A stretch of 64,000 bases of DNA from an uncultured virus (IMG/VR IMGVR_UViG_3300030372_002239) (lineage: Duplodnaviria > Heunggongvirae > Uroviricota > Caudoviricetes), in the IMG/VR virus record IMGVR_UViG_3300030372_002239, positions 1 to 64,000 of that record; one strand, written 5' to 3'. Position 1 is the first letter of the stretch. The number at the start of each line of letters is the position of its first letter. A program made the translations under genes and the position numbers. The notes under the pieces are model-generated. The model was not told the DNA's origin. It saw only the letters and a program-made list of their open reading frames with translations, and searched no databases. Shown here one piece after another: positions 47,863 to 62,997 of the stretch.

Positions 47863-47878
47863 AGCAACCTTCGTGCCA
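47863..47878 (-). promoter_or_regulatory. Sigma54 (-24/-12) promoter for replication operon
   Basis: TGGCACGAAGGTTGCT, exact GG-N10-GC spacing, intergenic, sense orientation. Confidence 0.88.
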
Positions 47879-47900
47879 ACTTTTTTGGGGGTAGGTGATA

Positions 47901-48608
47901 TTAATAGATGATTAATTTACCCAATGTCTTGTAACGTGCAAGTATAGATTGTAGTTCTCTGTAGTTGCCGGTGAGTTTGGTTTGATCTAGGATTTGCAGC
48001 ATCAATCCTTCGGGGTCTTCGACTTCTTGTTTCTTGAGGTAGAGAGTTATGTCGTCTGTTCTATCTCGGAGTGGTGATGTCTTGATGATGAAGGTTGATA
48101 TGCGGTGATAGAGATCGAGTCTGAAATTTCCTACCTCGACTTCTTTGCGTAAGTCTTTGTTGGTTGAGAACACGAAGCGACAAGTTGCATTGTGTTCCTC
48201 GGCTTCGCCTATGCGACTATACTTCTTGTGTTGAATGAAGCGTAGTAGCTTGGGTTGTAGGTGTAAGGGAAGTTCTCCGATCTCATCTAGGAATAACGTG
48301 CCTTTGTGCGCTCGCTGAACGAAACCAGTTGTGTCTCTGGTCGCTCCCGTGAATGAGCCTTTGAGGTGTCCGTAAAGAAGCGATTCAAACAAGTCTTCTT
48401 GGAGTGTAGTTACGTTTACAGGAACGAAGTTATTTTGTATTTTGGCGTTCGATGCTGACTGCCTTTCTCCATGTAAGATTTGAGCGATAGTCTCCTTACC
48501 TGTGCCAGACTCCCCCATCACTAGGACGGGGGAATCGTGGCTGGACAGAATGTGTGCATGGTAGATTTGCTCTAGCATGAACTTGTCTTCTGTGATTAGT
48601 TCTTCCAT
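47901..48608 (-). CDS. Stand-alone sigma54 activator (bEBP AAA+ domain only)
   Basis: GESGTGKE, VPVN, ESLLYGHLKGSFTGA, LFLDEIGE, QPKLLR, STN, FRLDLYHR, PLRDR, GNYREL; no receiver domain or HTH. Confidence 0.95.
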   Translation of the reverse strand: MEELITEDKFMLEQIYHAHILSSHDSPVLVMGESGTGKETIAQILHGERQSASNAKIQNNFVPVNVTTLQEDLFESLLYGHLKGSFTGATRDTTGFVQRAHKGTLFLDEIGELPLHLQPKLLRFIQHKKYSRIGEAEEHNATCRFVFSTNKDLRKEVEVGNFRLDLYHRISTFIIKTSPLRDRTDDITLYLKKQEVEDPEGLMLQILDQTKLTGNYRELQSILARYKTLGKLIIY

Positions 48609-48790
48609 GTAACTTCTACGCCTTCTGCGTCTAATATGTCATCCCACTTCCAATCTTGTGGGTGTTCGTGTACTTTAGGATTCCATTTGAACTTGAGATG
48701 TACTTCAACTGTATCTAACTCAGGCTCATCGTGCTGCGGAGGGTCTTGGTTCTCTCGCTGGCCCCATGCATCAAGCGACATTTGATTCAT
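48596..48790 (-). CDS. Hypothetical early protein
   Basis: Overlaps both neighbours. Confidence 0.55.
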   Translation of the reverse strand: MNQMSLDAWGQRENQDPPQHDEPELDTVEVHLKFKWNPKVHEHPQDWKWDDILDAEGVEVTWKN

Positions 48791-49541
48791 CTTGTAAGAA
48801 TTTGAGTACGCTACGATTGGTTCTTGCCACTAGCTCAAAACTTTTATCCATCTCTGGTGTCAGGTTTTGCGTTACCGCATTGTATAGATTGTATACGTTA
48901 CGGTCTTTATCTTGCGAGTATGTAGGATTGCGCCATATATCCAAGATGTCCTTGCCTCGCCTTTCACCAATCTTCTTACCCTCGACCAGCTTCTCGATGA
49001 TTGATTCGCCCTTTTGTTGAGTGATCTTAAAACCGTGCAAGACTCTGTAGCCTTCAACTGATGCGTCAAACTCACGCTTGGCTGAGTTGATTGAATCGTT
49101 GATATAGTCCAAGTCTAGGTTCATTGAATGTCTACCTGACTGCTTGGTATTCATGCATGGTGAAGTCATACCGTTAGTGCAAACAAGACGTAATGCCCCT
49201 GCATCTATTGGTATACCAGAAGAACCATCGTATGAATTGCGTAACGTGACGCGCATTCCGATGATGTCTCCCTTTGCTACTTCAGCACGTTGTTCTTTGA
49301 AGTCATAGACTGCATAAAGTCTTGCCCCATTGTTGGGACAATAGATTTTCCTCTGAAACTCACCGAGTTTCAGACAGGATTCAACTCTGTCTATTACTTC
49401 TTTATGATGAACTATCTTGTACTTATCTGAAACAAGAGCAAGATGCTCACCTGTGTCCTCGCGAAAGTTCTCGCGATGTCCTTCGATTACTTGTCCTCGT
49501 ATGTTTAATACGGGACGACTCTTTACATTGAACTCATACAT
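48771..49541 (-). CDS. DUF932-family protein
   Basis: VSDKYKIVHH, NSYDGS, LRLVCTNGM, YNLYNAVT. Confidence 0.85.
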   Translation of the reverse strand: MYEFNVKSRPVLNIRGQVIEGHRENFREDTGEHLALVSDKYKIVHHKEVIDRVESCLKLGEFQRKIYCPNNGARLYAVYDFKEQRAEVAKGDIIGMRVTLRNSYDGSSGIPIDAGALRLVCTNGMTSPCMNTKQSGRHSMNLDLDYINDSINSAKREFDASVEGYRVLHGFKITQQKGESIIEKLVEGKKIGERRGKDILDIWRNPTYSQDKDRNVYNLYNAVTQNLTPEMDKSFELVARTNRSVLKFLQDESNVA

Positions 49542-49759
49542 TGTTCGATTAGTTTTACTTGGTTTTGTGTTAATGCTTTATCGAATTGATAAAACAAAAA
49601 TTTGTTATCACTTGTACAACATTCTGCTGTACCTGTCTGATAGATTTCGTCGATTGTTTGGTCTTCATCGGATATTACAATGAGTCCGATTTCATTTTGT
49701 AGCATATCAACGTCACTTCGCTCAAGATGATTTACTTGCCAGATGTAAGTGTGTGCCAT
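49523..49759 (-). CDS. Hypothetical early protein
   Basis: Fills gap between neighbours. Confidence 0.45.
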   Translation of the reverse strand: MAHTYIWQVNHLERSDVDMLQNEIGLIVISDEDQTIDEIYQTGTAECCTSDNKFLFYQFDKALTQNQVKLIEQCMSSM

Positions 49760-50265
49760 GTTGGTTTCTCTCTTCGTGTCCATCGTGCGAATGGTTTGTC
49801 TAGTTGTATGTACAGCCTGTATTTTTCTACTATTGCTAGGTCATCAAAGTTTGGTTGCTTGCGACAGTTCATGTCCTTCGCTATGGCTACAGCGAACTCG
49901 GTTCTTGATCCGATAGGTGCGTAAGAATCTTTTAGGTTCTCGTAGCACCAAGCAATGAAGTCGAGAGTGTAATGGTCTTTACCCCAGCGGTATCGACGTT
50001 CTTCACCCATCTCAATGGCATGACTTATCAGCCAGCTCATGTTGTCGCGAGTCTTGAATGTCCATTGTGTGCATGGATGGTAGCGATAGCTATGTACTCT
50101 CGGACGGCCTAGTGCATTGCGAGGACAGTCGTCTGCTGCGAGTCTGGATAAAGGAAAACCGTTGGCCAGCATTTGTGCTGACTCAACGATCATCTTGTTT
50201 ATATGTTTGTCGCAGAGATTACGCGCTGCAACAATTGGGTTATCATCAGTTACAAAGATGTTCAT
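49732..50265 (-). CDS. Pyrimidine-dimer DNA glycosylase (DenV-like) family protein
   Basis: MNIF...CDKHINKMIVESAQML...HPCTQW...YRLY. Confidence 0.8.
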   Translation of the reverse strand: MNIFVTDDNPIVAARNLCDKHINKMIVESAQMLANGFPLSRLAADDCPRNALGRPRVHSYRYHPCTQWTFKTRDNMSWLISHAIEMGEERRYRWGKDHYTLDFIAWCYENLKDSYAPIGSRTEFAVAIAKDMNCRKQPNFDDLAIVEKYRLYIQLDKPFARWTRREKPTWHTLTSGK

Positions 50266-50437
50266 CGTGACAAGCCTCGTTAAACTTGAGTATCTTTTGT
50301 CCACAACTCTCACATTCTTTATGTTGCAGACCTGTTCCAACACAATCAGTACATTTTTGACATAATTCTGCTACGATTAAGTAGCCTTTGCCTTCGCATA
50401 ATTCGCAAAGATCAACAACTCTTTTTGTGTAGCTCAT
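50246..50437 (-). CDS. Small Cys-rich zinc-finger protein
   Basis: CxxCxGxG repeats. Confidence 0.6.
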   Translation of the reverse strand: MSYTKRVVDLCELCEGKGYLIVAELCQKCTDCVGTGLQHKECESCGQKILKFNEACHDEHLCN

Positions 50438-50561
50438 CGTTTCTTTGGTTTTGTACGGTTCGTTGATTTAGTTCTGCTTGAATTGGCAGGACGGCTACTT
50501 GTGTGGGTAAGTTTACCAGTTTTCATCGACCGCTCTTGCCTTCGACTATAAGGTTTGTATT

Positions 50562-50744
50562 TCATCGTTTTCGTGTCTTTGCTTTGATGATGCAACGTGT
50601 CAATTTTCCGTTCCAGCTATCTTGGCGTAAGGATTGATTAGGATTTTCAGTAACGCTCGGACTATCCAGTTTAGTCCAGTTTCTTGCTCTGTCTGGTATG
50701 TCTACCAGTTCGACGTTTCCGTTAACTATTGTTCTTGCTTTCAT
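50562..50744 (-). CDS. Hypothetical early protein
   Basis: ORF in leftward early block. Confidence 0.5.
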   Translation of the reverse strand: MKARTIVNGNVELVDIPDRARNWTKLDSPSVTENPNQSLRQDSWNGKLTRCIIKAKTRKR

Positions 50745-51036
50745 TAAACTTTAAGTAGTTTGGTGATCTATGAAATAGGTTGTGTACCCAATTTGCTGAC
50801 TGTCTGTCTAGGTAATGTTCGTTACCTTGGATAGAGTAGTCTGGCGGGAATAGTATCTCCGTGTCTGGTAGGTCGCAATGGACGAGATGTTCTTTGTGGT
50901 ATTCATGCCAGTCAGGATGTTTTTGTAGATTCTCAGGCCCGTATCCATACAAGTTGCATTCATGCAACGCGCTGATAGCCATTAGACGGGAACGGCTCGG
51001 ATGTTTGAGTGCTACGGTCAAAGATGTATTGTTCAT
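50722..51036 (-). CDS. Hypothetical early protein
   Basis: ORF in leftward early block. Confidence 0.55.
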   Translation of the reverse strand: MNNTSLTVALKHPSRSRLMAISALHECNLYGYGPENLQKHPDWHEYHKEHLVHCDLPDTEILFPPDYSIQGNEHYLDRQSANWVHNLFHRSPNYLKFNESKNNS

Positions 51037-51304
51037 GTTTCTTTTGGTATAAGCATTTCTGGATGTTTAACGTGTTTAGTAATCCGTTCAGTCTCTCGCG
51101 AGTTGTCATTGTGGGCCAGCCACAAAGTGAAATGTGGAGCGAGTTTACTGTCTGTTCTGCGATGCAATGCCCATGCAAGTAGAGTTGCGTGACATTGTCG
51201 TCAGGGAATCGCAGGTCTTTTTTGACTTCGACGCGAGTGTTGTCACGACTGAAGTTCTTGCCTTGTTTGAATGCGCGTGCAGCGTCTTGTGTTATTTTTC
51301 TCAT
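50960..51304 (-). CDS. Hypothetical early protein
   Basis: MRKIT...LYLHGHCIA...CGWPTMTTRERLNGLL. Confidence 0.7.
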   Translation of the reverse strand: MRKITQDAARAFKQGKNFSRDNTRVEVKKDLRFPDDNVTQLYLHGHCIAEQTVNSLHISLCGWPTMTTRERLNGLLNTLNIQKCLYQKKHEQYIFDRSTQTSEPFPSNGYQRVA

Positions 51305-51678
51305 TTGTTGTTTTTGTAGTTTTTGTAGTCTTTATTTAAGGGGTGATTGATTACCCAGTCGTACAGTTCTTTGTTGTCGTTGTAGAGGTCGGATAGAATG
51401 CCAGAGTAAAGTGTCTTTACTGGCGAACTGATCTTGATCTTGAACTTATTGCTGAATGTATATTCGGGTTGTGACTCAGATGCCTTGCTAGAGAAGCCGC
51501 CTTGGCATCTGCGAATGCTGGTTGATATTTTACCATCGCCCCAAATGTCTTTGCCTAGTGCGGCTTGTAGTGAGAGAGCGCGACTTAATTCTCTCATAAG
51601 AGACTCGCGTTCTTCGCTTTGTTTACTTATCTTTTGGGATAGTGCTTCCATTTTAGTTATGGATTCAGACATTTTCAT
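51301..51678 (-). CDS. Hypothetical early protein
   Basis: Coupled to neighbours. Confidence 0.6.
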   Translation of the reverse strand: MKMSESITKMEALSQKISKQSEERESLMRELSRALSLQAALGKDIWGDGKISTSIRRCQGGFSSKASESQPEYTFSNKFKIKISSPVKTLYSGILSDLYNDNKELYDWVINHPLNKDYKNYKNNK

Positions 51679-51943
51679 GTAGAGTATTTGTTAAAGTTGT
51701 GTAAGTTGTGAGAGAGTAGCGTTCACCTGCGAGATTAGTTAAGCAGGATTCGCAAGGTTCTTTTGAGAAGTCGTCTGTCTTGTCTCCGGTCATTAAGTAA
51801 CCATGCTTGGCTAGTTTATCGAGACCGTTATTTATTTCGGTGTATCTTGTTTGGGCCTCGTCTCCTTGGTAGTGGTAGTCGAGGGATGAAGCATCGCCGG
51901 TCGCGTTAAGCGTGTGGCAGTCTTGGCAGATTGTGAATTTCAT
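51665..51943 (-). CDS. Hypothetical early protein with two CxxC motifs
   Basis: CQDC and FSKEPCESCLTNLAGER. Confidence 0.7.
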   Translation of the reverse strand: MKFTICQDCHTLNATGDASSLDYHYQGDEAQTRYTEINNGLDKLAKHGYLMTGDKTDDFSKEPCESCLTNLAGERYSLTTYTTLTNTLHENV

Positions 51944-51947
51944 GTGA

Positions 51948-51973
51948 GAAAAAAGGGGGGATTGCTCCCCCCA
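51948..51973 (-). terminator. Rho-independent terminator
   Basis: G6/C6 stem followed by T tract on the minus strand. Confidence 0.7.
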
Positions 51974-51979
51974 TTGAAG

Positions 51980-52570
51980 TTAGGCGAATAGTGCATCTGC
52001 CTCGACATCGAGTGCATCAATCTTGGCTTGGATTGTCGCTGCCTTTTCAGCAGATTTTTCCTTGCGATGTTTAGCCTCAAGGGTGCGACGTTCCGCGAAG
52101 ATTTCTTGCATCCGTTGGGCGCGAGTCTCGGAGGCTTCTAGCTTCTTGGTGAGTGCTGCTTTTCCGTCTGACTTTGTACGCTCCTTGAATGCATCCCCGT
52201 CAAGTGCTTGCGCAATGTTGGAGAGTTTCTCATCGTCGGTGTAAGAGTCTGTTCGCTTGCCGTCTATTGATTTCTTTTGGGCGGTTTTGTATTTGCCGTT
52301 ATTGAGACGGTAGAAACAAGCGTCTTTTATCCATGAGTCGGCATCGTTGTCTAGGACTCCAGCTTCGTTTAGTGCCGTGATCCAATCGCGGATGTCGTTC
52401 AAGTCGTTGGTAGACTCGGAGCCTGTCTCATGCGCCCAGTATTTGAAGGGGCCATCTTGTCCCTTGGTTGATTCAAGGAGAGTCAAGTCAAGGTTCGCGA
52501 GTGTTTCGTCGTTGTTAACCAAGGCGAGTTGGGCCTTGCCGTTTTCGTTTGTTATGATTTTGGTTTTCAT
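51980..52570 (-). CDS. Hypothetical early protein with its own promoter and terminator
   Basis: ATG at 52570; coiled-coil C-terminus. Confidence 0.7.
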   Translation of the reverse strand: MKTKIITNENGKAQLALVNNDETLANLDLTLLESTKGQDGPFKYWAHETGSESTNDLNDIRDWITALNEAGVLDNDADSWIKDACFYRLNNGKYKTAQKKSIDGKRTDSYTDDEKLSNIAQALDGDAFKERTKSDGKAALTKKLEASETRAQRMQEIFAERRTLEAKHRKEKSAEKAATIQAKIDALDVEADALFA

Positions 52571-52590
52571 AATAGCCCGAAGGCGAGACA

Positions 52591-52618
52591 AGACTAGCAG
52601 AGGGGGGAGGGGTGTCAA
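52591..52618 (-). promoter_or_regulatory. Sigma70-type early promoter
   Basis: TTGACA-N13-TG-N-TAGTCT. Confidence 0.7.
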
Positions 52619-52680
52619 CCCTTATATGAGATTTAATGAAAAAAATATTTTTTGTATATATTGATATGCTCATGGTTGTA

Positions 52681-52834
52681 TTGATTATTAAATTTATTTA
52701 TTTAGATTAATCAACGGGTGGTATGCCCCCTTCTAGTAGTCTATATATATAAAGATATCTATATTTTTTTTCTATTCTGTCAACGTGTAAAGGGGGGTAG
52801 TTGATTAATCTAAATAAATAAATTTAATAATCAA
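52681..52834. repeat. Perfect 35-bp AT-rich inverted repeat with 84-bp spacer, candidate origin
   Basis: 52681..52715 is the exact reverse complement of 52800..52834. Confidence 0.85.
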
Positions 52835-52895
52835 CCTTTGCCCCGTTTATTTACATTAACTAGATAAGAAAAAACCCCCTTGCGGGGGTTGTCGT

Positions 52896-53144
52896 TTATT
52901 TTTCCGGTTTGTTGAATTTCTCCTCTTCAACGTAGGCAACGTCGGCCTTGTCGAGTTTACCTTCAAGGTAACGAATTCGCATTCTGTATTCGTTGATTTC
53001 GACTTCGTGCTTTTCGTGTACTTCGTCCCACGCTTTTTGGATTTCATCCATTTCCCATTTAGTTGGGGCGATGTCTTCAATCAGTCGTTTGATGCCGTCA
53101 GCAATTTCGACTTTGTTCTTTAGATTATTGATGTAGTAATTCAT
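52896..53144 (-). CDS. Hypothetical early protein
   Basis: ORF followed by a terminator-like hairpin near 52867..52890. Confidence 0.6.
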   Translation of the reverse strand: MNYYINNLKNKVEIADGIKRLIEDIAPTKWEMDEIQKAWDEVHEKHEVEINEYRMRIRYLEGKLDKADVAYVEEEKFNKPEK

Positions 53145-53171
53145 AAGAAAAAAGGGGCTTGCACCCTCATG

Positions 53172-53375
53172 TTATGCTTCAATTGATACGCTGATGTCTC
53201 CGTCGTTTACCATGTCGCGAACCGTATCGCGTATTTCTGCGCGCCGGTCGTCTTCATTTGGTTGTGAACTGATTTCATCAACTTTTTTCTCAATTGCCTT
53301 TTGTATTATCATGGTCATTTCCGTGACAAAGTAATCGGCAAGCCCTTCAATTTGTTCTTTAGTGTTTTTGTTCAT
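53172..53375 (-). CDS. Hypothetical early protein
   Basis: ATG at 53375 just downstream of predicted promoter. Confidence 0.6.
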   Translation of the reverse strand: MNKNTKEQIEGLADYFVTEMTMIIQKAIEKKVDEISSQPNEDDRRAEIRDTVRDMVNDGDISVSIEA

Positions 53376-53398
53376 ATTTAGTGCCATGCGGCAAAGAC

Positions 53399-53426
53399 AG
53401 GTTGACATAAACAACAAATTTGTCAA
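53399..53426 (-). promoter_or_regulatory. Sigma70-type early promoter (TTGACA present on both strands)
   Basis: TTGACA-N13-TG-N-CAACCT. Confidence 0.55.
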
Positions 53427-53483
53427 CACTTTATGAAAGAAAAAATCTCATGTAAAATGCATTTATGGGTTGCGTTTCTCTGG

Positions 53484-53579
53484 ACAGCCCGAAAGGGTGG
53501 AGCGAAGCTCCCTCGGGCTGTACTAACTAATACCCGCAAGGGACTCGGCAGAGGTGACTGAAAGGAACAATTAGTTAGT
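53484..53579. ncRNA. Candidate structured non-coding RNA (two multi-stem domains)
   Basis: 9-bp and 10-bp closing stems with internal tetraloop hairpins in an intergenic region. Confidence 0.45.
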
Positions 53580-53826
53580 TATATTTTTTATTTTCGTCTC
53601 AGTAGAAAAGGCAGGGGCCGAAGCCCCCACCAATGTTATGACCTGTTACGTTTAAGCAACTTCTGGACTGCTCTGCGCATGATGTCTGTTTGGCGTGGAT
53701 TGCGTGGAAACAGAAACTTGCGCCCTGCGTATTTCATCATTAGACGTTTTCTCATAATAACCCGAAGGCAGGGACAGAGTATCAACCATCCATAACAAGT
53801 CAAGATAAAAATAAAAAATAAATTGG

Positions 53827-53854
53827 TTGACACAATTCTTGATTCTGGTACTTT
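53827..53854 (+). promoter_or_regulatory. Sigma70-type promoter
   Basis: TTGACA-N13-TG-N-TACTTT. Confidence 0.7.
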
Positions 53855-53880
53855 GGGGGTGCGGTAATACCGCAAATGTT

Positions 53881-54102
53881 ATGACAATAGAAAACCTAAA
53901 GTTGGCAATTCGCGGAATGGCTTCAGTATTGAATGAAACCATCCTTGAGTTGGATACGTTGCAAAAGAAGTATGACGAACTCAAGCTGGACGAACGTCGA
54001 TACTATCAATGGTGGCATGATGAAACCAAAGAGACTGACAGGCTCAAGGGTATCCTTGAGAAAACTGGCATGGCCTCGGAACCAGTAGAAGCTGATGAAT
54101 AA
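53881..54102 (+). CDS. Hypothetical coiled-coil protein
   Basis: ATG just downstream of promoter. Confidence 0.6.
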   Translation: MTIENLKLAIRGMASVLNETILELDTLQKKYDELKLDERRYYQWWHDETKETDRLKGILEKTGMASEPVEADE

Positions 54103-54157
54103 AACTGATAAATTCTGTCTATGCTTTTTGCTAGGCTTTATAATAATCGTAGTAATC

Positions 54158-54186
54158 AAGTCCCTCAGTTGAGGGGCTTTTTTTGT
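54158..54186 (+). terminator. Rho-independent terminator separating the sigma70 unit from the late operon
   Basis: AAGTCCCTC-AGTT-GAGGGGCTT stem followed by T tract. Confidence 0.8.
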
Positions 54187-54314
54187 GCCTAGAGGGGGAG
54201 GGGATCAAAGGGGGAGGGGGGCCAGAAGTCGTGCCGCTACTGGACTATAACCTCCTCTGAAAAAATGACCCAAAAAACACTATGAGACAAAACATACTTT
54301 ATCTTATAAAATTC

Positions 54315-54330
54315 TGGCACGAACTCTGCT
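54315..54330 (+). promoter_or_regulatory. Sigma54 (-24/-12) promoter for packaging operon
   Basis: TGGCACGAACTCTGCT, GG-N10-GC, intergenic, sense orientation. Confidence 0.8.
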
Positions 54331-54420
54331 TCAACCGCCCCATGTGTGAACGATCAATCGAAATCTGCAAATCAACGCCTCTAATTCAGTACGCCCTCTT
54401 CTTCAACCCCAATCTATTCG

Positions 54421-57400
54421 ATGCCTACCGAGTCTAACATTGTTCAAGAGTTTGCTGATGGGCCAACTCCTGACACCGTTGACGCATTTGGCAAAGTAGC
54501 TGAAGGCCCACTCATAAAGTACAATCCCGGTGGTTTCGCCCAATTCCGGGCTGAGACAACTGGATTACCACCTGCTCGCGCTCAATTCGGCGACCAAGAG
54601 TTTTGGGGTCAACTCGTCACACCCACAACCACAAAACTAGACACAGAACCAACAGGCCCAACAGGCCCAACAGATTTAGATGGCACAGGATTATCGAACG
54701 ACCAAATAGACGCGATAGTAAAAGAAAGTGATGATGCAAATAAAGAACTTGAAGATTGGTATCGCAGATCAAGTAGTGATGACCTAGTAGATTTTGATAA
54801 GTACCGACTCGACATACCAGACCCAAAAATCAACTGGGACACCAGCGATATTGGCTACACCGGCTACGATTACAGAAAAGACCCCGATTTCTTATCTGGA
54901 GACCTAATCAGCGCAGACCGCAATTTTGAGCCGATACAGATTCCTCTTGGCCCCGGTGGTGGAGGCCCGATAGGACTTGCACCAAGGACACCGCAACCAA
55001 AGCAGGATCGTCCAAGAATTTCGATTACGCCAAAAGGAATACCAAAACCAGAAAAAGATTTACCACCAGTAAAAGGAACTTCAAAAAATACAACAGGAAT
55101 ATTTAAGCCAACGCTAGGAGATAAAGCGGCACAAACATTACAAGACATATTCTCTGCAACAGAAAAGCCAGCAAGAATACTTTTTGGTAAAACACGTTAT
55201 GACGCAGAAGGCCCATTACGCAAAGATGAACGTCAGACATTTGACACACTCAAAAAGTTCAAAGATTGGTCAGATGGTTTAACTGAAGAACAATTCAAGC
55301 TATGGGAGACTAAAGGTATACCGTCAGAAACAACAGGACGCGCACCTGTTGGCCCGAAATATGGCAAGATGCTGGCTGACTTTGGTCGCATCCTCAAGAA
55401 CGAAGAAAACATACGCACACAAGAATATGGCGACCTTCAGCTACTTGCTGCATTAAACACGGCAGCCTTAATCAGTCAGTATGGTGCAATCGGTGGTGCA
55501 ATCCCCGTTTTAATCACAGCCTCAGACGACATTATGTCAGGCATGAACAATATGTTCGCCAAGAGTCCTGAACTAGCAGGAAACCCAATACAAGACTTTG
55601 TGCATGGTACAACATGGGTACTCGGCAAAACCTTACAAAAAACTTACAACAACACAATCGGCCAAGTCTTACCCAAGATCAAAGATACACGGATAAAGGA
55701 CAAGCTAGGAAACATCGACGAGTTTATGAAAGCACCTCGTCGTCCTACAATGGGCACAAAAGCCGTAATCTCAATGCCCGATCCCGATGGCACAATAAGA
55801 ACAGACCGAAACATAAGCAAAGGGATACCAGAAGCAGAGCGGCAACAAGTTACAGCGCAAACCACATCAACAGTAACAGACCCAGCGACAGCGACAGCTA
55901 GACCAATAAGTGTCCGAAACATAGGCAGAGGTGTACCAACAGGGGCAACAACAAGACTAACTGGTGATACACCTGTCTCACAAACAACAAGCACACTACC
56001 AAAAGTCGAAACTTCTGAAACACTTACAGCCAATATAACAGATAAAGATAAACAAAAGATTGATGATGGAACAACAGTAACAGAGCAAAAGCCTACAGGC
56101 ATAACAATCGTAGACGTAGATGACTTTGAATCAAAAGACCAAGACAAAGATATAGAAACAGCAGACCTAGACTTACGCTACGAGCAACCAGTCGAAACTA
56201 AAATTGTAGACCCGATAGTAGTAAGTCCAAAAGGTAAGGAGAAAAAAGATGAAATAAAAACTGAAAAAAATCAGAAACTAAAAACTCCTAAAACTCAACC
56301 AGATTTAGTTGACGCTAAATCAATAAAAGTAAAAGAAGGTGATAAAAAACCAGACCCAAAAATTAAAGGACTTAAAATAGAAAAAGTTGATGGTGTTGTT
56401 TCAAACGAAGACAAAGAAGACAAAAAAGACGTAAAAGAAGCTGACTTAAATTTAGAGTATAAAAAACTAGATGAGTCTGAACTCGATAAAATAAAGTCAA
56501 ATATAGAGAAAGAACAAAAACAACGCGAAGAACAAAAACGCGAAGAAGAACGTAAACAACAGGAGGGTAAAAAGTCTAAAGACAAACCAAAATTCACAAT
56601 AGATGTTGAAGAAGTAGAACCTACAACAGACCCTCCGGTAACTGAGTTACCATTTATGCCAGAAATTGTTGCTCCCGAGGTAGACGAAGATGCAAAGCTA
56701 GATGATCCACCAGAGGAACAGCCAGACGATGAACTCGAATATACACCAGAAACAGGCGTAGAAGCTCCCGATGGTTTATATTACAGCACTTATTATAATG
56801 TTCCCGTTGATGCTGACGGCAATCCTTTTGGAACTTCTGGTTGGGATGAAAGTCGATACGAAGGAAAAACACTTCCGGTATTAAATATGGCATTTGGACT
56901 TGATCCTAATAATCCCGAAATTGGTGGTAAAGTAGGCGAAAAACCAAGCGGGAAAGAAATGGATTGGAATGCCAGAATGCAAGATTTTAGAGACAGGAAC
57001 GCTTTGTCTGAAAATGTAGGATCAAGAACTAACTATGAAGTTGATTTTGGAGATGTAGATCCAACAATCGGCGGTGGAGGTTCGGTAAAGATAGACATGG
57101 AAGAAAATCCATACGGATTAAATAATCCGGATTTTCCCGGTCAAGGCTACAACGAAGACCCAAGCACATACCAAAGAATCGCAGATTCACAAACAGGTGT
57201 AAGATGGGACGCTAGTATAAATGATTTTGTTCCGTGGAATCCAGATTTACCAGAGTCTAATAATCCCGACAATCCACAGTATTGGGGGCCAGAACGCGAC
57301 ATTCCTCAAGGCGGGGGCGAGGCTACTGGCGGGCAAAAAGTATGGACAAAACCTGAAGTAGCAGACCACGCAAGAAATACGGGACAGTTAACGCCAGAAA

Positions 57401-57579
57401 GAATAACGTGGGTAAATACAGAAACAAATGAAATACATACTGAAACTGTAACTCCATACGTTTATCGAGACGGTTTTGGTTGGGCTTATGATTATGATAC
57501 AAGTCCACCATTTTGGTTACAAGGTAACTGGCGAACATTCGATGCGCCAGTAGGAGGGAGTATTGATTTAGGTGAGTAG
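54421..57579 (+). CDS. Large acidic low-complexity protein (1052 aa), unknown function
   Basis: Long ORF rich in P/T/D/E/K; no motif recognised. Confidence 0.75.
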   Translation: MPTESNIVQEFADGPTPDTVDAFGKVAEGPLIKYNPGGFAQFRAETTGLPPARAQFGDQEFWGQLVTPTTTKLDTEPTGPTGPTDLDGTGLSNDQIDAIVKESDDANKELEDWYRRSSSDDLVDFDKYRLDIPDPKINWDTSDIGYTGYDYRKDPDFLSGDLISADRNFEPIQIPLGPGGGGPIGLAPRTPQPKQDRPRISITPKGIPKPEKDLPPVKGTSKNTTGIFKPTLGDKAAQTLQDIFSATEKPARILFGKTRYDAEGPLRKDERQTFDTLKKFKDWSDGLTEEQFKLWETKGIPSETTGRAPVGPKYGKMLADFGRILKNEENIRTQEYGDLQLLAALNTAALISQYGAIGGAIPVLITASDDIMSGMNNMFAKSPELAGNPIQDFVHGTTWVLGKTLQKTYNNTIGQVLPKIKDTRIKDKLGNIDEFMKAPRRPTMGTKAVISMPDPDGTIRTDRNISKGIPEAERQQVTAQTTSTVTDPATATARPISVRNIGRGVPTGATTRLTGDTPVSQTTSTLPKVETSETLTANITDKDKQKIDDGTTVTEQKPTGITIVDVDDFESKDQDKDIETADLDLRYEQPVETKIVDPIVVSPKGKEKKDEIKTEKNQKLKTPKTQPDLVDAKSIKVKEGDKKPDPKIKGLKIEKVDGVVSNEDKEDKKDVKEADLNLEYKKLDESELDKIKSNIEKEQKQREEQKREEERKQQEGKKSKDKPKFTIDVEEVEPTTDPPVTELPFMPEIVAPEVDEDAKLDDPPEEQPDDELEYTPETGVEAPDGLYYSTYYNVPVDADGNPFGTSGWDESRYEGKTLPVLNMAFGLDPNNPEIGGKVGEKPSGKEMDWNARMQDFRDRNALSENVGSRTNYEVDFGDVDPTIGGGGSVKIDMEENPYGLNNPDFPGQGYNEDPSTYQRIADSQTGVRWDASINDFVPWNPDLPESNNPDNPQYWGPERDIPQGGGEATGGQKVWTKPEVADHARNTGQLTPERITWVNTETNEIHTETVTPYVYRDGFGWAYDYDTSPPFWLQGNWRTFDAPVGGSIDLGE

Positions 57580-57928
57580 TCATCAAGTAGTTAGATTAGC
57601 GAAGGAAGGTTTCTCGGTTGAAGAAATTGTAGAAGACCTTGGGTATGAGCGTGAGAACGTCGAGTTAATCCTAGCAGGAAATAAGAAAGCTAAAGATACT
57701 CCGCTTGCCAAAAAATTTGAAGAACTGGAAGACACGGCACTAGACGTAGTTCGTGTTGCGCTACAAACAGGAACAGCGAATGCTCCTGCGCTGAAAGCTG
57801 CTTTCTACGTTCTTGACCAGAGGCAGGGACTCAAGACACCTCATGGTACAACTAACGTGAACATATCAGATTTTAACCTCCGACTAGAAAAAGCGCGAGA
57901 GGTTATGAATAAAGCCATAGAAGTATGA
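57572..57928 (+). CDS. HTH protein, candidate terminase small subunit
   Basis: GFSVEEIVEDLGY; upstream of terminase. Confidence 0.55.
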   Translation: MSSHQVVRLAKEGFSVEEIVEDLGYERENVELILAGNKKAKDTPLAKKFEELEDTALDVVRVALQTGTANAPALKAAFYVLDQRQGLKTPHGTTNVNISDFNLRLEKAREVMNKAIEV

Positions 57929-58143
57929 CAGTAAAAAATGGACGGCTATTCGCCGTAAAGAACAAGAGCCGAAAATTCGGTGCTACAAACAAATACGTAT
58001 TCACGTACCTTGAAGACAGTAACGGTGACAACGAGTTACCTTACTTATTCACGCCAAGCCAGTTACGAGTCGCACGAAAACGTGCTGAAGATAATCCAGA
58101 AGACTTGCTCGAAAAAAACTTGTTAACTGACTGGTTTGATTAA
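57925..58143 (+). CDS. Hypothetical protein
   Basis: Coupled to neighbours. Confidence 0.65.
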   Translation: MTVKNGRLFAVKNKSRKFGATNKYVFTYLEDSNGDNELPYLFTPSQLRVARKRAEDNPEDLLEKNLLTDWFD

Positions 58144-58499
58144 TGGAACTATACAATTATAAAGCAGAAGTTACCAGAGTTGTTGACGGTGATACTGTTG
58201 ACGCTTTTATTGATCTTGGTTTTGATATGCATTCAAAGCAGCGTGTACGTCTTTACGGTATTAACGCACCGGAGACGCGAACTCGCGACTTGATCGAGAA
58301 GAAGCATGGTAAAGCTGCGACGAGACGTTTGGTTGAGATGCTCAAGGAAAACAAAAACAAATGCATTATAAAAACGTCACTCGACAAGAAAGGTAAATAC
58401 GGTCGTGTGTTAGGCACATTATTCATTGACGACAAAAACCTAAACGAGACTCTGGTAGAAGAAGGTTACGCAGAAACCTACCATGGAGAAAAGCGGTAA
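58143..58499 (+). CDS. Thermonuclease (SNase-like)
   Basis: RVVDGDT, RVRLYGINAPE, GKYGRVLG, LVEEGYA. Confidence 0.9.
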   Translation: MELYNYKAEVTRVVDGDTVDAFIDLGFDMHSKQRVRLYGINAPETRTRDLIEKKHGKAATRRLVEMLKENKNKCIIKTSLDKKGKYGRVLGTLFIDDKNLNETLVEEGYAETYHGEKR

Positions 58500-59985
58500 C
58501 ATACAATTTAAAGACCCTTACGAGATGTTGACCGTTATTGACGACGACATCTTGGAGGGACGCATTTCTCTACACAAATGGCAGCGTGAAATCCTAGAGG
58601 ATTACGGCAAGCCATCAAATGCCAGTAAACCATTCAAGGCCGCAGTAAGAGCGGCGAATGGTTCTGGTAAAGATCAATTTGTTATAGCCCCTTGCGCCTT
58701 ATGGACTTGCATGGCATCAGCTAATGCAGTCTCGATAGTCACAACTGCATCTGGTAATCAGCTAGATCGCCAAACAGACAAGTACATCAAGCAGTTAATG
58801 AACACCATTAACAAGATGTTTGGCACACAAGTCTGGAAGATGAACTATCGTCATTACACCAACTTACTAAATGGCTCAACAATCGAGCTATTCGTAACGG
58901 ACGAGGCTGGTAGAGCAGAGGGTTGGCATCCGGTAGTTCCCGGCGGGGAACTAGCAATATTTGTCTCGGAGGCCAAGTCAGTACCCGACGAGATATTTAC
59001 AGCGTTGGCTCGTTGCACGGGCTTTACTAAACGAGTGGACGTATCTAGTCCCGGCCCACCTTCCGGTCACTTCTACAATATGTGTACTGGAGGTAACTGG
59101 AAGCAATATCATGTCACAGCTTTCGACTGCCCCCATCTATCAGAAGAATACATTGCTGAAATCAAAGACTCGTATGGAGAAACCTCTGCTTTATACAAGT
59201 CTATGATAATGGCTGAGTTTGGTGGTATGGACGAGCAAGTCGTAATAAATCACCAGAAACTTGTAGACTTGGACAAACACGAAATAGAACATCTAGAAGA
59301 AGAATACAACGTAGCTGGCCTTGATTTATCAGCAGGAGGTGACGAGCAAGTTCTAGTAATCCGAAACGGTAACAAAACGCTTGCAGTCGAAGCCTTCAAC
59401 TTTCGAGACACAGTCGCCCTAATAAATCACCTAGAACACTTATTCAGAAAATACAAACTAGACCACGAACAATCAATAATCTACGGTGATGCAGGAGGTT
59501 TAGGCAAACCTATACTCGACCAACTAAAAGCTAACTGGAACGTCACCTACGTCTTAAACCAAGCAAAGCCATACAACAATCTAGCCTACTTAAATCGCGG
59601 TGCAGAACTCTGGTTCAGCGTGGGCAAGTTAATAGAATACGGAGAGATCATGGTTCCTAGAGAATCAAAGCTCCGCAAACAACTAGCATCTCGCTACTTC
59701 GTAGTGACACCGCAAAATAAACTACAACTTGAAAGTAAGAAACAGGCACGATCAAAGGGTCATGTATCGCCTGACAGAGCAGATGCTTTCGTACTTGCGT
59801 TCGCAGACTATCGTGGTATCAAGCCCAAGAAGTTGCGTAAAAAACGCACAGAAAAATTTACACCAAAACAATTTAATTTAACATCAAACAGACAAAGAGC
59901 GGTATTCGGCTTTAACGTAAGATCGAATCCGTGGTTACAAGATGAAATACAACAACTACAAGAATTATCAAGAGGCCGCAACTAA
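58483..59985 (+). CDS. terL: Terminase large subunit
   Basis: RAANGSGKD, FVSEAK, VSSP, GLDLSAGGD, SPDRADA. Confidence 0.9.
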   Translation: MEKSGNIQFKDPYEMLTVIDDDILEGRISLHKWQREILEDYGKPSNASKPFKAAVRAANGSGKDQFVIAPCALWTCMASANAVSIVTTASGNQLDRQTDKYIKQLMNTINKMFGTQVWKMNYRHYTNLLNGSTIELFVTDEAGRAEGWHPVVPGGELAIFVSEAKSVPDEIFTALARCTGFTKRVDVSSPGPPSGHFYNMCTGGNWKQYHVTAFDCPHLSEEYIAEIKDSYGETSALYKSMIMAEFGGMDEQVVINHQKLVDLDKHEIEHLEEEYNVAGLDLSAGGDEQVLVIRNGNKTLAVEAFNFRDTVALINHLEHLFRKYKLDHEQSIIYGDAGGLGKPILDQLKANWNVTYVLNQAKPYNNLAYLNRGAELWFSVGKLIEYGEIMVPRESKLRKQLASRYFVVTPQNKLQLESKKQARSKGHVSPDRADAFVLAFADYRGIKPKKLRKKRTEKFTPKQFNLTSNRQRAVFGFNVRSNPWLQDEIQQLQELSRGRN

Positions 59986-61690
59986 CATACACAAGTTAGT
60001 CGGTATATGTGATGCCCAAAGTGTTCGTGCCAACGACCAACGTCAGCAACGTCGTCTTAACGTCGATCTCGATTTAGAACGTCGCGATGGCTATCTAGCA
60101 CCGGATGAGATTTATATACCAACGCACATCATCGACACAAATATTCGTCGTGAGCAAGCCAAGTATGTTTCGTACATCGTAAACTCAAGACGCACAGCGA
60201 TCTTTTCAAGCTCGACAGACCCAGCGTTTAACACCGGCCCACTAGAGCGAGACTTTACAGAACGCTCACGTTACGACGGTTGGCAGATACCATTATTCCG
60301 AGTCATAGACTGTATGCAGTTGCATGGCTACTGTATTGCAGAAGTAGAATTCGATGACACGAAGCCCGGTCATTTTGGAATAGAATCTGTAAACTACGAG
60401 GACATTGCATTTCCAGATGACACTCGCGACATACAAGCGTGTGGTATGCTAGTTCATCGACATTACTTTACTCGTGAGCAACTGTTGGACATGGTTAAGA
60501 CACGAGACTTTAGCAAATCGGAAGTCGAGGCTTTAGTAGGCGAGCCTGTTGACGAGCAGACGGAATCCTTGTTTAAGATTGAGAAGGTCATGTTTAGAAG
60601 CAAGGGGATAGTTCAAGTGGGGTGGTCTTGCGCAGCTAGATGCAACGACTGGTTGCGCAAGCCACGTCCCCTCTTTTTGGGCAAGCGAGACGCAGAAGGA
60701 GAAATCTACGAGACAGAATATCCATACGTCGTATTCCATTACACAATAGCAGAGGACATGACTATCAAGAATTCTGTTGGTCGTGCCTTCCTAGATAAGC
60801 ACACACAAGAAGCAGTTAGTTCAATGATGTCATCGTTTGTGACTGCACATCGTCGTGCATCTAACTTTTACTTTGCCAAAGACTCTGATGATCCGAATCA
60901 AAGCAACGAGCAAACAAATGTACAGTTTGTTCCCGGCGCACTAATAGATTCAAACGTCAGACAATTCCAACTGTCACCACCTAATGCACAGATGTTATCA
61001 GCGATACAAACATTGATAACACAGAATGCACAGGAGCAATCTCAGATGAACTATGCTGCAATGAATCGACAAGATTCACGCAAAACAGCAACAGAGATTC
61101 AGACAGCAACCGCTGAAGCACAAATGTTATCGGCAACACAAGTTGCATTATTTAGCATCGCCATCAAACGCATCTACGAAAAGTGTTTCGACATATATAA
61201 CTCTCGCGTTCTTGACGGTTTAATTGAACCAAACATCTCACTAGAATACTTTACTGACCACAAGTACAACATGAAACCAGCGGGTGACACCGATGTTGTA
61301 GAGCGACAGGAGAAAGCGTCAAAGATGCTGCAAGTTTGGCCGGTAATTCAACAGAACAGCGCACTCGCAATAGACTACATGAAGGATATGCTGAGTATGC
61401 TATTCCCTGACGAAGCTCCAAAATACATCAACATGATGCAAGAAGATACGGCTCGCGCTCAGTTGATCCAGCAGATGATGACGATAATTCAGAGTCTAGT
61501 CACAGACCCACAAACAGGACAACTAAACCAAGAAGCACAACCGTATGCCCAACAGCTACAACAATTACAACAACAAGTCCAAGCACTTTCGGGAGGCGAC
61601 CAGAAAGGTGCTGGAGGAGCAAGCTCATCAGCAATGGCTGGACAACCCAACAACCAAGGTATTCCTCAACCTACTCAGGCAGGAGCGTGA
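59942..61690 (+). CDS. Portal protein
   Basis: 582 aa after terminase; KTATEI motif; Q-rich tail. Confidence 0.8.
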   Translation: MKYNNYKNYQEAATNIHKLVGICDAQSVRANDQRQQRRLNVDLDLERRDGYLAPDEIYIPTHIIDTNIRREQAKYVSYIVNSRRTAIFSSSTDPAFNTGPLERDFTERSRYDGWQIPLFRVIDCMQLHGYCIAEVEFDDTKPGHFGIESVNYEDIAFPDDTRDIQACGMLVHRHYFTREQLLDMVKTRDFSKSEVEALVGEPVDEQTESLFKIEKVMFRSKGIVQVGWSCAARCNDWLRKPRPLFLGKRDAEGEIYETEYPYVVFHYTIAEDMTIKNSVGRAFLDKHTQEAVSSMMSSFVTAHRRASNFYFAKDSDDPNQSNEQTNVQFVPGALIDSNVRQFQLSPPNAQMLSAIQTLITQNAQEQSQMNYAAMNRQDSRKTATEIQTATAEAQMLSATQVALFSIAIKRIYEKCFDIYNSRVLDGLIEPNISLEYFTDHKYNMKPAGDTDVVERQEKASKMLQVWPVIQQNSALAIDYMKDMLSMLFPDEAPKYINMMQEDTARAQLIQQMMTIIQSLVTDPQTGQLNQEAQPYAQQLQQLQQQVQALSGGDQKGAGGASSSAMAGQPNNQGIPQPTQAGA

Positions 61691-61832
61691 ACGCTTGGTC
61701 AAAGATATAGAATATGTTGCGGTTAAGCGTGGAGTATCGGACTCGGAAGTTCGTATTATTGCTGCACAATTAAAAACAACAGACGACATAATAGAAACCA
61801 TAAATGACAGAAACAGATACAAAGGAAGTTGA
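61545..61832 (+). CDS. Small post-portal protein (start uncertain)
   Basis: QWLDNPTTK motif; overlaps portal 3' end. Confidence 0.55.
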   Translation: MPNSYNNYNNKSKHFREATRKVLEEQAHQQWLDNPTTKVFLNLLRQERERLVKDIEYVAVKRGVSDSEVRIIAAQLKTTDDIIETINDRNRYKGS

Positions 61833-62916
61833 GTTCAACTTTGGCGACATTTCGGTAGGTGAAAGTCTTGAGCCAGAGCAACTTGAAGCGAAAGAACCAG
61901 AAGAACCTACTGAAGAAACACCAGAGGAATCACCAGAGGAAACTACAGAGGAATCTAGTGAAGAATCTACAGAAGACTCGTCTGAAGAATCTAATGAAGA
62001 ACCTAACGAAGATTCAACCGAAGATTCAACCGAAGAATCTAGTGAAGAACTATCGACTGAAGATATTCTTGGTGACCCGCTAGAGGAAAAAGAAGAAAAG
62101 TCTGATGGACGAAGTTACGAAGGTTTTGACGATGAAGATAAACAATATGCAAAGCAGATGTCTAACAATGCGTATGAACACTTCTCGAAAAAACTCAAGG
62201 AACTAAAAACCAAGAAAGACGCAGCAGAAGAAACGCAGGATTTAATGTCTCATCCAGAGGCGTACACGTTAAATCCAGAGTATCAAGAACTTGTCACCGA
62301 TTACGATAAAGCATCGCAAGAACAGGCGCATTGGAAGCGTCAGCTTGTTGCTATTCGTAACGGAGATTCTTGGCGATCAATTGAAGGCTACGATAAAAAC
62401 GGTAAACTTGTACTTGGCAAAGAAGAATACAAGCCAACTGGAGAGTCTGAAATTGATGTGCAATCTGCGCTGACAGAAGCTCAAACATTAAGTAAAAGCT
62501 ACAGCAAACGTGCGCACGACATCCAGAAAAATCACACGAAAGACTACAAAGAGTCTACTGATATGCTGGAAGAAGAACAGCGTAAACAGTTCAAGTGGCT
62601 ACAAGATAAGGAGATGGGCAAAAAAGTTATCGACATACCTAATCTCGGAAAAACCTCGATAAATAAGCTCAGAAAGACGTTTGGCGAAGCTATTCCCAAA
62701 GTATTCACAAACCATCCTATGTCAGAACTTGCCACGAATCTTTGGGTAATGAACCAGATTCTTGCTAAACAACAGCATGAATTAACTCAAAAGATCAAGA
62801 AGCAGAACACAAACAAGAAAGATATGCTTCGCGGAGAACCCAAAGCAACAACATCTGGTGTAGAAGACGACGACATAATTTCTATTTCAGACGGCATGGC
62901 AGACTATTTCTCATAA
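61804..62916 (+). CDS. Capsid scaffolding protein
   Basis: Acidic EESxEE repeats; position between portal and capsid. Confidence 0.7.
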   Translation: MTETDTKEVEFNFGDISVGESLEPEQLEAKEPEEPTEETPEESPEETTEESSEESTEDSSEESNEEPNEDSTEDSTEESSEELSTEDILGDPLEEKEEKSDGRSYEGFDDEDKQYAKQMSNNAYEHFSKKLKELKTKKDAAEETQDLMSHPEAYTLNPEYQELVTDYDKASQEQAHWKRQLVAIRNGDSWRSIEGYDKNGKLVLGKEEYKPTGESEIDVQSALTEAQTLSKSYSKRAHDIQKNHTKDYKESTDMLEEEQRKQFKWLQDKEMGKKVIDIPNLGKTSINKLRKTFGEAIPKVFTNHPMSELATNLWVMNQILAKQQHELTQKIKKQNTNKKDMLRGEPKATTSGVEDDDIISISDGMADYFS

Positions 62917-62921
62917 AATAG

Positions 62922-62937
62922 TGGCACGAAGTTTGCT
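62922..62937 (+). promoter_or_regulatory. Sigma54 (-24/-12) promoter for major capsid gene
   Basis: TGGCACGAAGTTTGCT, full consensus match, 5 bp after scaffold stop. Confidence 0.9.
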
Positions 62938-62946
62938 AGAATACAT

Positions 62947-62997
62947 ACGCTTCTACGCCAAGGGCATGGCACGCTTCTACTTGTGAAGGGCATCACA
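62947..62997 (+). repeat. Tandem RNA-like motif in capsid 5' leader
   Basis: ACGCTTCTAC plus hairpin with AGGGCA loop, twice, with different stem sequences. Confidence 0.7.

Follow-up and report, generated by a model that had tools for sequence, protein, structure and literature searches.

A phage-encoded, AAA+-core-only sigma-54 activator and its associated -24/-12-type sites: a candidate temporal switch in uncultured marine phages

Textbook accounts of phage transcription programmes feature phage polymerases, sigma factors, anti-sigma proteins, and antiterminators that act on the sigma-70 enzyme; in systems such as those of T7 RNA polymerase, T4 gp55, and the sigma factors of phiEco32, one early product redirects transcription to a private class of promoters. 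Sigma-54 promoters conform to the consensus TGGCAC-N5-TTGCW, with the start of transcription about 12 nt past the GC doublet, and the bacterial enhancer-binding proteins (bEBPs) that activate them include natural versions without a DNA-binding domain, namely, Helicobacter FlgR, Chlamydia CtcC, and Rhodobacter FleT, which work on the sigma-54 holoenzyme from solution. Here we describe a bEBP gene reduced to the AAA+ core, together with three sigma-54-type -24/-12 sites (P1, P2, and P3), from an uncultured marine phage of ~43 kb, hereafter phage B. It was found in positions 1 to 64,000 of the 65,640-bp IMG/VR record IMGVR_UViG_3300030372_002239, and this 64,000-nt stretch is what we call the window.

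The closest described parallels come from both bacteria and phages. In Salmonella, the sigma-54 promoters of many regulons are activated by DctD250, a laboratory-made fragment of Sinorhizobium DctD with the AAA+ core only, which is characterized as constitutive, promiscuous, and enhancer-free (PMC3844500). The development of Pseudomonas phage YuA is reported to be strictly dependent on host sigma-54 (PMC5053324), and one sigma-54-like promoter region of this phage is reported to have been confirmed by start-site mapping (PMC10914365); the use of sigma-54 by phages is described as rare but not unprecedented. Further, Htm (Gp204) of Mosigvirus AV110 is described as an AAA+ protein with a bEBP-like structure and no DNA-binding domain (bioRxiv 10.64898/2026.10.06.757011).

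The IMG/VR record itself is a chimera, in which a fragment of one phage (phage A) is joined to the nearly whole genome of phage B (~22.9-65.6 kb). This follows from a shift in GC content over the whole record, from 0.50 over 1-24 kb to ~0.43 beyond, from the presence in one record of two family A polymerases and two sets of packaging and capsid genes, and from the colinearity with related contigs of 43.6 and 45.5 kb, which is limited to ~22.9-65.6 kb. The split into two phages, which had been claimed in an earlier reading of the window made without database searches (the sequence-only reading), is thus borne out by the GC step and the partial colinearity with relatives. The join lies near a tail-fibre-like gene (21925-22881); CheckV gives the chimeric record a completeness of 100%, despite the two phages with their distinct GC contents.

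Three -24/-12-type sites and an AAA+-core-only activator

The pattern TGGCACGAANNNTGCT, i.e., the 16-mer TGGCACGAA-N3-TGCT, has three exact matches in the window, where 0.00 are expected; none of 100 dinucleotide-preserving shuffles contains any match to it, and the full 65,640-bp record holds the same three matches and none further. P1 (TGGCACGAAGGTTGCT, 47863-47878, minus strand) starts 22 nt past the stop codon of a 235-amino-acid (aa) open reading frame (ORF) coding for the activator and heads the replication operon, with a predicted start at ~47852. P2 (TGGCACGAACTCTGCT, 54315-54330, plus strand) lies inside a 240-nt gap (54180-54420), past a terminator-like hairpin (54158-54179, plus strand), and heads the packaging and head-assembly operon, with a predicted start at ~54341. 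P3 (TGGCACGAAGTTTGCT, 62922-62937, plus strand) precedes the capsid gene, starting 5 nt past the stop codon of a 370-aa scaffold-like ORF and 86 nt ahead of the capsid ATG at 63024, with a predicted start at ~62948. Read directly from the sequence, the distance from GG to GC is exactly 10 nt at each of the three sites; all are intergenic, uncovered by any ORF of at least 80 aa, and in the sense orientation, with the next same-strand ORFs 23 (P1), 91 (P2), and 87 (P3) nt downstream. The shuffles and the ORF check hence confirm the three motifs as the sequence-only reading had described them, that is, intergenic, in sense orientation, and with exact GG-N10-GC spacing. The full consensus TGGCAC-N5-TTGCW is matched at P1 and P3, and P2 differs from it by a C in place of the first T of TTGC. 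A loose scan for the same consensus with up to two mismatches returned 39 matches against 37.6 expected, indicating that the signal consists of three sharp sites rather than a cloud of weaker ones or a general bias.

The gene next to P1 (47901-48608, minus strand) encodes a protein that matches PF00158 over residues 5-175 (E value of 1.2e-53; 181.6 bits against a cut-off of 20.2), and a six-frame search of the record recovered this domain once (182.3 bits). Pfam scans of the protein found no HTH_8, receiver, GAF, or PAS domain and no second kind of domain. Among solved structures, its best matches are the AAA+ domains of FleQ, NtrC1, LuxO, NifA, and PspF (E values down to 2e-43), with identities of 36-44% to the solved FleQ, NtrC1, and PspF cores; the alignment with the NtrC1 AAA+ domain covers residues 2-225 of 235, leaving 10 residues after it. 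Likewise, an AlphaFold model (predicted local distance difference test score, 72) has an alpha/beta core and a three-helix lid, with nothing beyond. Across 22 sequences, the Walker A motif GESGTGKE (G32, G35, T36, G37, K38, and E39) and the Walker B motif LFLDEIGE (D108 and E109) have invariant residues at the positions given. The sigma-54 contact loop reads GSFTGA in phage B and aligns with GAFTGA of FleQ, with S for A as the second residue; the 22 homologues have either GSFTGA or GAFTGA, with G84, T87, G88, and A89 conserved and F86 nearly invariant. Four arginines (R163, R169, R183, and R217) are also invariant in these homologues, and we take them to be arginine-finger or sensor II residues.

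Judged by the sequence of its catalytic core, the 235-aa protein is a true sigma-54 activator, and it looks catalytically competent, its ATPase motifs and the loop that contacts sigma-54 both being intact. By the domain scans and the structural model, it possesses neither an enhancer-binding helix-turn-helix nor an N-terminal regulatory domain, which makes it a bEBP by its core, though not an “enhancer-binding” one. PspF likewise has no N-terminal regulatory domain. In PHROGs, the protein belongs to phrog_7998, which is annotated as “unknown function.” A repeat search upstream of P1, P2, and P3 recovered no common element and, hence, no enhancer candidate. As P1 and P3 adjoin coding sequence (22 and 5 nt past the respective stop codons), there is no intergenic room for an upstream activator-binding site, and the absence of an upstream enhancer is indeed what is expected of an activator without a DNA-binding domain.

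Conservation of the sites and their co-occurrence with the activator

Short activators of this kind (205-290 aa) are common in marine metagenomes, with relatives of the phage B activator present in at least 317 IMG/VR contigs. In 80 of these, which were taken for analysis of the locus (999,255 bp), the pattern TGGCAC-N6-TGCN occurs 78 times, as against 4 times for the reversed control pattern. We defined the post-activator site as a GG-N10-GC element scoring at least 9/10 and lying no more than 80 nt past the activator stop; with one locus too short to be assessed, such a site is present in 64 of 79 loci, compared with 17 of 4,000 random 80-nt windows from the same loci. Grouped by identity to the phage B activator, the site is found in 9/9 loci at 90% or above, 3/3 at 70-90%, 20/20 at 55-70%, and 32/47 below 55%.

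Beyond the activator locus, five relatives (G001 to G005), with activators 99, 96, 79, 60, and 44% identical to that of phage B, have an intergenic site at the same three positions, namely, past the activator, before the large ORF of the packaging operon, and before the capsid gene, with the capsid-side site 87-161 nt ahead of the latter. The spacers among these sites differ (GAAGGT, GAAGAA, GGTTAC, and GAATCT), and TGGCA(C/T) and TGCT are kept across lineages while the spacer changes. Of 34 loci from capsid relatives, 25 have a site scoring at least 9/10 in the 350 nt that precede the capsid gene. Retention of the motif in activator-bearing relatives, which the sequence-only reading had made a check on its claim, is thus seen both at the three positions in these five genomes and in the larger set of activator loci.

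Two departures from this layout were observed. Three capsid relatives with 59-63% identity (G016, G017, and G020) possess no pre-capsid site; instead, they have two sites ~364-370 nt apart on opposite strands in addition to the post-activator site, suggesting that promoter placement was rearranged in this subclade. In G005, one to three copies of TAGAAGAT(A/G) are found directly upstream of the sites at 25017-25032, 31762-31777, and 40331-40346, and the activators of this lineage (44% identity) have an extra N-terminal stretch of 30-70 aa. The repeat may be a proximal binding element in the G005 lineage.

The sequence immediately past P2 offers a further conserved feature. A small ORF of 31 aa (MCERSIEICKSTPLIQYALFFNPNLFDAYRV, 54342-54437, plus strand), the first gene after P2, begins with an ATG 11 nt past the site and overlaps the start of the 1052-aa ORF that follows. 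An in-frame ATG is found 11-13 nt past the P2 motif in G000 to G005, where the encoded ORF has 30-34 aa and its peptide retains the pattern I-x-I/L-C-x-x-TPL-x-x-Y. Because the ATG sits 11 nt past P2, at the predicted start, the mRNA of the small ORF would be nearly leaderless, and the conserved ATG would lend indirect support to the predicted sigma-54 start site.

Co-occurrence of the activator and the sites was assessed in 34 records of capsid relatives, of which 18 have PF00158; among those at least 90% complete, all nine do (9/9), the remainder being fragments, and in each of these nine the activator is accompanied by the sites. Over the 34 records, 61 matches to the pattern TGGCAY-N6-TGCW were counted against 5 for the reversed control, typically with three sites per complete genome. 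In 17 activator-bearing records of other lineages, mostly of 48-56 kb and several with terminal repeats, we found 60 sites against 1 for the control. Since the near-complete capsid relatives of phage B all (9/9) carry the activator, the negative control is provided by relatives of phage A: in 22 of these (545,761 bp), no PF00158 match over the cut-off and 0 sites (6 for the control) were found. The sequence-only reading had used phage A as an internal control. The record contains PF00158 once and three sites only, but phage A is simply the other half of a misassembled record; the co-occurrence that the reading had proposed to check is instead seen in the near-complete capsid relatives, with neither partner in the phage A relatives. 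Taken together, the activator and the sites travel together across several phage lineages, and their recurrence indicates that the system of phage B is not a one-off.

Transcription programme, alternatives, and genome layout

Two candidate sigma-70-type promoters are found in the early region, namely, TTGACT-N16-TACTCT (53776-53803, minus strand) and TTGACA-N16-TAGTCT (52591-52618, minus strand), each followed by the same GCCTTCGGG hairpin leader and an ATG, and each present in G001, G002, and G004. In G005, the early units have TTGACA-N17-TATACT and TTGACA-N17-TACGGT. The TTGAC-N16-TAnTCT units would, from their sequence, be read by sigma-70. A strong terminator-like hairpin (51955-51972, minus strand) separates the first early genes from the gene block whose last member is the activator and could delay synthesis of the activator. 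A six-frame search of the record found neither a sigma-54 DNA-binding domain nor sigma-70 region 2, and Pfam scans of 46 phage B ORFs found no sigma or T7-type polymerase domain.

Taking these findings together, we consider it likely that phage B runs a cascade in which sigma-70 leads to the phage bEBP and the bEBP in turn leads, without enhancers, to transcription of the middle and late genes by the host sigma-54 enzyme, where the dependence on sigma-54, the start sites, the timing, and the independence from enhancers are what we infer. In the first stage, host sigma-70 RNA polymerase would read the leftward early genes from the TTGAC-N16-TAnTCT promoters, with the activator being the product of the last gene in the early block. 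In the second stage, the host sigma-54 holoenzyme would be held at P1, P2, and P3 in closed complexes until the activator accumulates, forms rings, and through ATP hydrolysis opens these complexes, thereby turning on middle and late transcription. The genes for replication would be under P1 and those for packaging and head assembly under P2; P3 would drive the capsid gene and, presumably, the tail genes that follow. In the absence of a sensor domain, the activator should be active once made, and in the absence of a DNA-binding domain, it should work from solution, free of enhancers. Such a switch would be tight, given that a sigma-54 promoter stays silent unless an activator is present. The activator gene would thus have in phage B the role that the RNA polymerase gene has in T7. 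The cascade had been put forward in the sequence-only reading, and the activator domain, the conserved sites, their co-occurrence, and the early units support it in silico.

Several observations weigh against this proposal or narrow it. With respect to the sites, the -12 element of P2 is CTGCT and not TTGCT, and in G004, P2 has AGCT and P3 has TGGCAG. No site follows the activator in 15 of the 47 loci with activator identity below 55%, 9 of the 34 capsid-relative loci have no site within 350 nt of the capsid gene, and 3 of the 17 activator-bearing records of other lineages, one of them complete (G050), have no site at all. The motif scans, moreover, selected on the consensus, which inflates the information content inside the motif. 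With respect to the early genes, a scan with the generic sigma-70 consensus shows no enrichment (19 matches against 29.6 expected), so that the case for early promoters, which the sequence-only reading had described as TTGACA-type, rests on the two conserved TTGAC(A/T)-N16-TAnTCT units that head early genes. Also, no terminator follows the activator gene ahead of P1, and early read-through may therefore reach the replication genes, in which case P1 may boost rather than gate their transcription. The sequence-only reading had recognised no RNA polymerase or sigma factor gene in phage B, and the domain searches agree, with the qualification that the absence of the T7-type polymerase (PF00940) from the record is a weak negative, 0 of 14 control genomes having matched. 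Finally, with respect to the host, no capsid relatives were found in 185,579 species genomes, and the nearest activators in these genomes are taxonomically scattered bEBPs of 34-50% identity.

Other pointers to the host and to expression are few. No tRNA genes were found. A Shine-Dalgarno-like motif precedes 7 of 32 phage B genes and 4 of 14 phage A genes, with A-rich leaders, which hints at hosts with weak reliance on Shine-Dalgarno sequences. Despite the low Shine-Dalgarno use, the TTGACA-type early promoters speak against a Bacteroidota host. One marine metatranscriptome (X1, contigs, share 0.06) has a few exact short contigs from late-strand genes only, for which DNA carry-over is possible and which, as contigs, are blind to starts and strand.

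One alternative is that the activator, promiscuous and permanently active, is mainly a host-takeover tool, which to the benefit of the phage fires the host sigma-54 regulon (nitrogen uptake, motility, and envelope stress), with the phage sites being secondary or driven by a host activator. Nothing in the phage protein limits it to phage promoters, and an AAA+-only bEBP is reported to switch on many unrelated host sigma-54 promoters (PMC3844500). For a T4-like phage protein whose fold is bEBP-like, changes in more than 700 host genes are reported (bioRxiv 10.64898/2026.10.06.757011). We regard this alternative as unlikely, since it leaves unexplained both the three sites at fixed positions ahead of phage operons across lineages and the way in which site 1 stays attached to the activator gene. 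It is compatible with the cascade as an added effect and does not replace it; a promiscuous activator would be expected to set off the entire sigma-54 regulon of the host during infection as well.

It is very improbable, in our view, that the sites bind the sigma-54 holoenzyme chiefly as roadblocks against read-through, such as that from the early block into the replication genes, or as sinks for sigma-54, to be cleared by the activator. Sigma-54 closed complexes are described as stable and as unopenable without an activator, and P1 and P3 are directly past upstream genes with no terminator ahead of them; however, P2 is already behind a terminator and needs no roadblock, the conserved ATG at its predicted start fits initiation and not blocking, and opening of the complexes by the activator would yield a transcript anyway. 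As a third alternative, the shared 16-mer could be the target of a phage factor or polymerase that has escaped recognition, or it could serve packaging or replication instead of transcription, its likeness to sigma-54 promoters then being coincidental. In favour of this are the many phage B ORFs without a family, among them those for the 1052-aa and 2020-aa proteins, and the extra TAGAAGAT repeat just upstream of each site in G005-type phages. We nonetheless hold it to be very improbable, because what is conserved is precisely the pair of GG and GC doublets of sigma-54 promoters, at their exact spacing and with a drifting spacer between them, and because the motif travels with the sigma-54 activator gene in several unrelated lineages and is absent from phages without it.

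Returning to the sigma-70 to sigma-54 cascade, the genes of phage B are laid out in three blocks. The early block runs leftward from ~53.8 to 47.9 kb, the replication block leftward from 47.8 to 39.4 kb, and the structural block rightward from 54.3 kb and, by the circular order of relatives, on into 24-39 kb. The replication and recombination operon downstream of P1 (39442-47840, minus strand), as delineated by ORFs and by Pfam and PHROG matches, codes for unknown proteins of 135 and 170 aa, a PD-(D/E)XK exonuclease, a DUF1599 protein, a Sak4-like ATPase, a DUF669 protein resembling single-stranded DNA-binding proteins, a family A DNA polymerase, and a DUF3987 primase/helicase. The packaging and head operon (54421-62916, plus strand), defined by ORFs and the same kinds of scans, contains the gene for a 1052-aa low-complexity protein, two small ORFs, an SNase-like nuclease, the large terminase, a 582-aa portal-sized ORF, and the 370-aa acidic scaffold-like ORF. 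The last two are a putative portal and a putative scaffold protein on the basis of size, position, and composition, with no family matches. The 1052-aa ORF at the head of this operon (54421-57579) is rich in Pro, Glu, and Lys, and both this ORF and a 2020-aa ORF at the end of the tail block (32643-38705) have no family matches.

The major capsid gene, a 467-aa ORF (plus strand; 63024-64000 in the window and extending to 64427 of the record), follows the scaffold-like ORF and is 56-80% identical to its counterparts in G003 to G005. It has no match in Pfam, PHROGs, or cultured phages, and its assignment hence rests on position and conservation. Between P3 and this gene, the leader of the capsid mRNA (62949-62996, plus strand) contains two GCTTCTA...AAGGGCAT units, which are conserved in capsid relatives and kept down to 40% capsid identity. 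Each AAGGGCAT is part of a 4-bp hairpin with the loop AGGGCA (62957-62970 and 62983-62996), and two of the four predicted pairs still pair after changes on both sides. The leader has no match in Rfam, and phage B as a whole has no known RNA family. The units may function as an RNA operator or in a way akin to antitermination, or they may be a site in the DNA. The early region also has a perfect 35-nt inverted repeat (52681-52715 and 52800-52834) around an 84-nt A/T-rich segment with TTGACA, for which an origin, a regulatory cruciform, and an invertible segment are possible interpretations.

Relation to known systems

Phage B is remote from cultured phages. It has no near DNA match among them, its capsid protein has no match in 50,697 phage records, and no cultured phage has a polymerase more than 25% identical to its own. 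The activator is matched by 65 records of the phage collection at identities of up to 41%, most of which look, by their annotations (such as glnG, atoC, and zraR), like bacterial DNA filed as phage. As no Pseudomonas phage is among these 65 records, YuA apparently does not have an activator of its own. YuA and M6 are also unrelated to phage B, there being no near DNA match and no match for the capsid protein in the phage records. Full-text literature searches, which did not extend to subscription journals, turned up no phage-encoded, GAFTGA-bearing activator with a phage sigma-54 regulon. What would be new here, with the sigma-54 mechanism itself being deduced from sequence, is thus the use of the sigma-54/bEBP system as a phage temporal switch through a minimal phage-encoded activator in several uncultured lineages.

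On balance, we also favour, with less assurance than the cascade in phage B, a broader proposal, i.e., that several lineages of abundant, uncultured, and mostly marine phages have turned the sigma-54 system into a temporal switch. A minimal, sensor-less, enhancer-independent AAA+ activator, which would amount to a natural DctD250, would be the sole middle/late factor supplied by the phage, the host holoenzyme would be preloaded on three to seven promoters per genome, and the host sigma-54 regulon would be fired as well. If so, these phages would provide a natural family of minimal, enhancer-independent activators with matched compact promoters, usable as orthogonal expression modules. Only rpoN-bearing hosts would be infectable, offering a clue for host prediction and a possible route to resistance, and host nitrogen, motility, and envelope genes would be switched on as a side effect of infection.

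With the bacterial sigma-54/bEBP systems (NtrC-glnAp2, PspF-pspA, and FleQ), phage B shares the PF00158 AAA+ family, the Walker motifs, a GAFTGA-type loop, and the GG-N10-GC geometry. In contrast to these systems, its activator is encoded by a virus and has no sensing or DNA-binding domains and no evident enhancer, and it would act on operons for replication, packaging, and the capsid, not on genes for stress or nutrient responses. FlgR, CtcC, and FleT, in turn, are chromosomal and keep control by a receiver or a partner, whereas the phage activator has no regulatory domain at all. DctD250 resembles the phage protein in being an AAA+ core only, of ~250 aa; however, it is a laboratory truncation ~10-fold weaker than an enhancer-bound activator (PMC3844500), whereas the phage activator belongs to a natural, conserved family with its own promoters. 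Htm differs from the phage B activator in that it has no GAFTGA loop and an altered Walker B motif; a connection of Htm with sigma-54 has been put forward only as a proposal, and the preprint reports no sigma-54 promoters in the phage.

The logic of the proposed switch is that of T7 RNA polymerase, T4 gp55, and the phiEco32 sigma factors. The difference is that the private promoter class in phage B would belong to an alternative sigma factor of the host, with the phage providing only an ATP-driven key. Such a “key” for the host sigma-54 enzyme, if the proposal is correct, would be a further strategy by which phages take charge of transcription.

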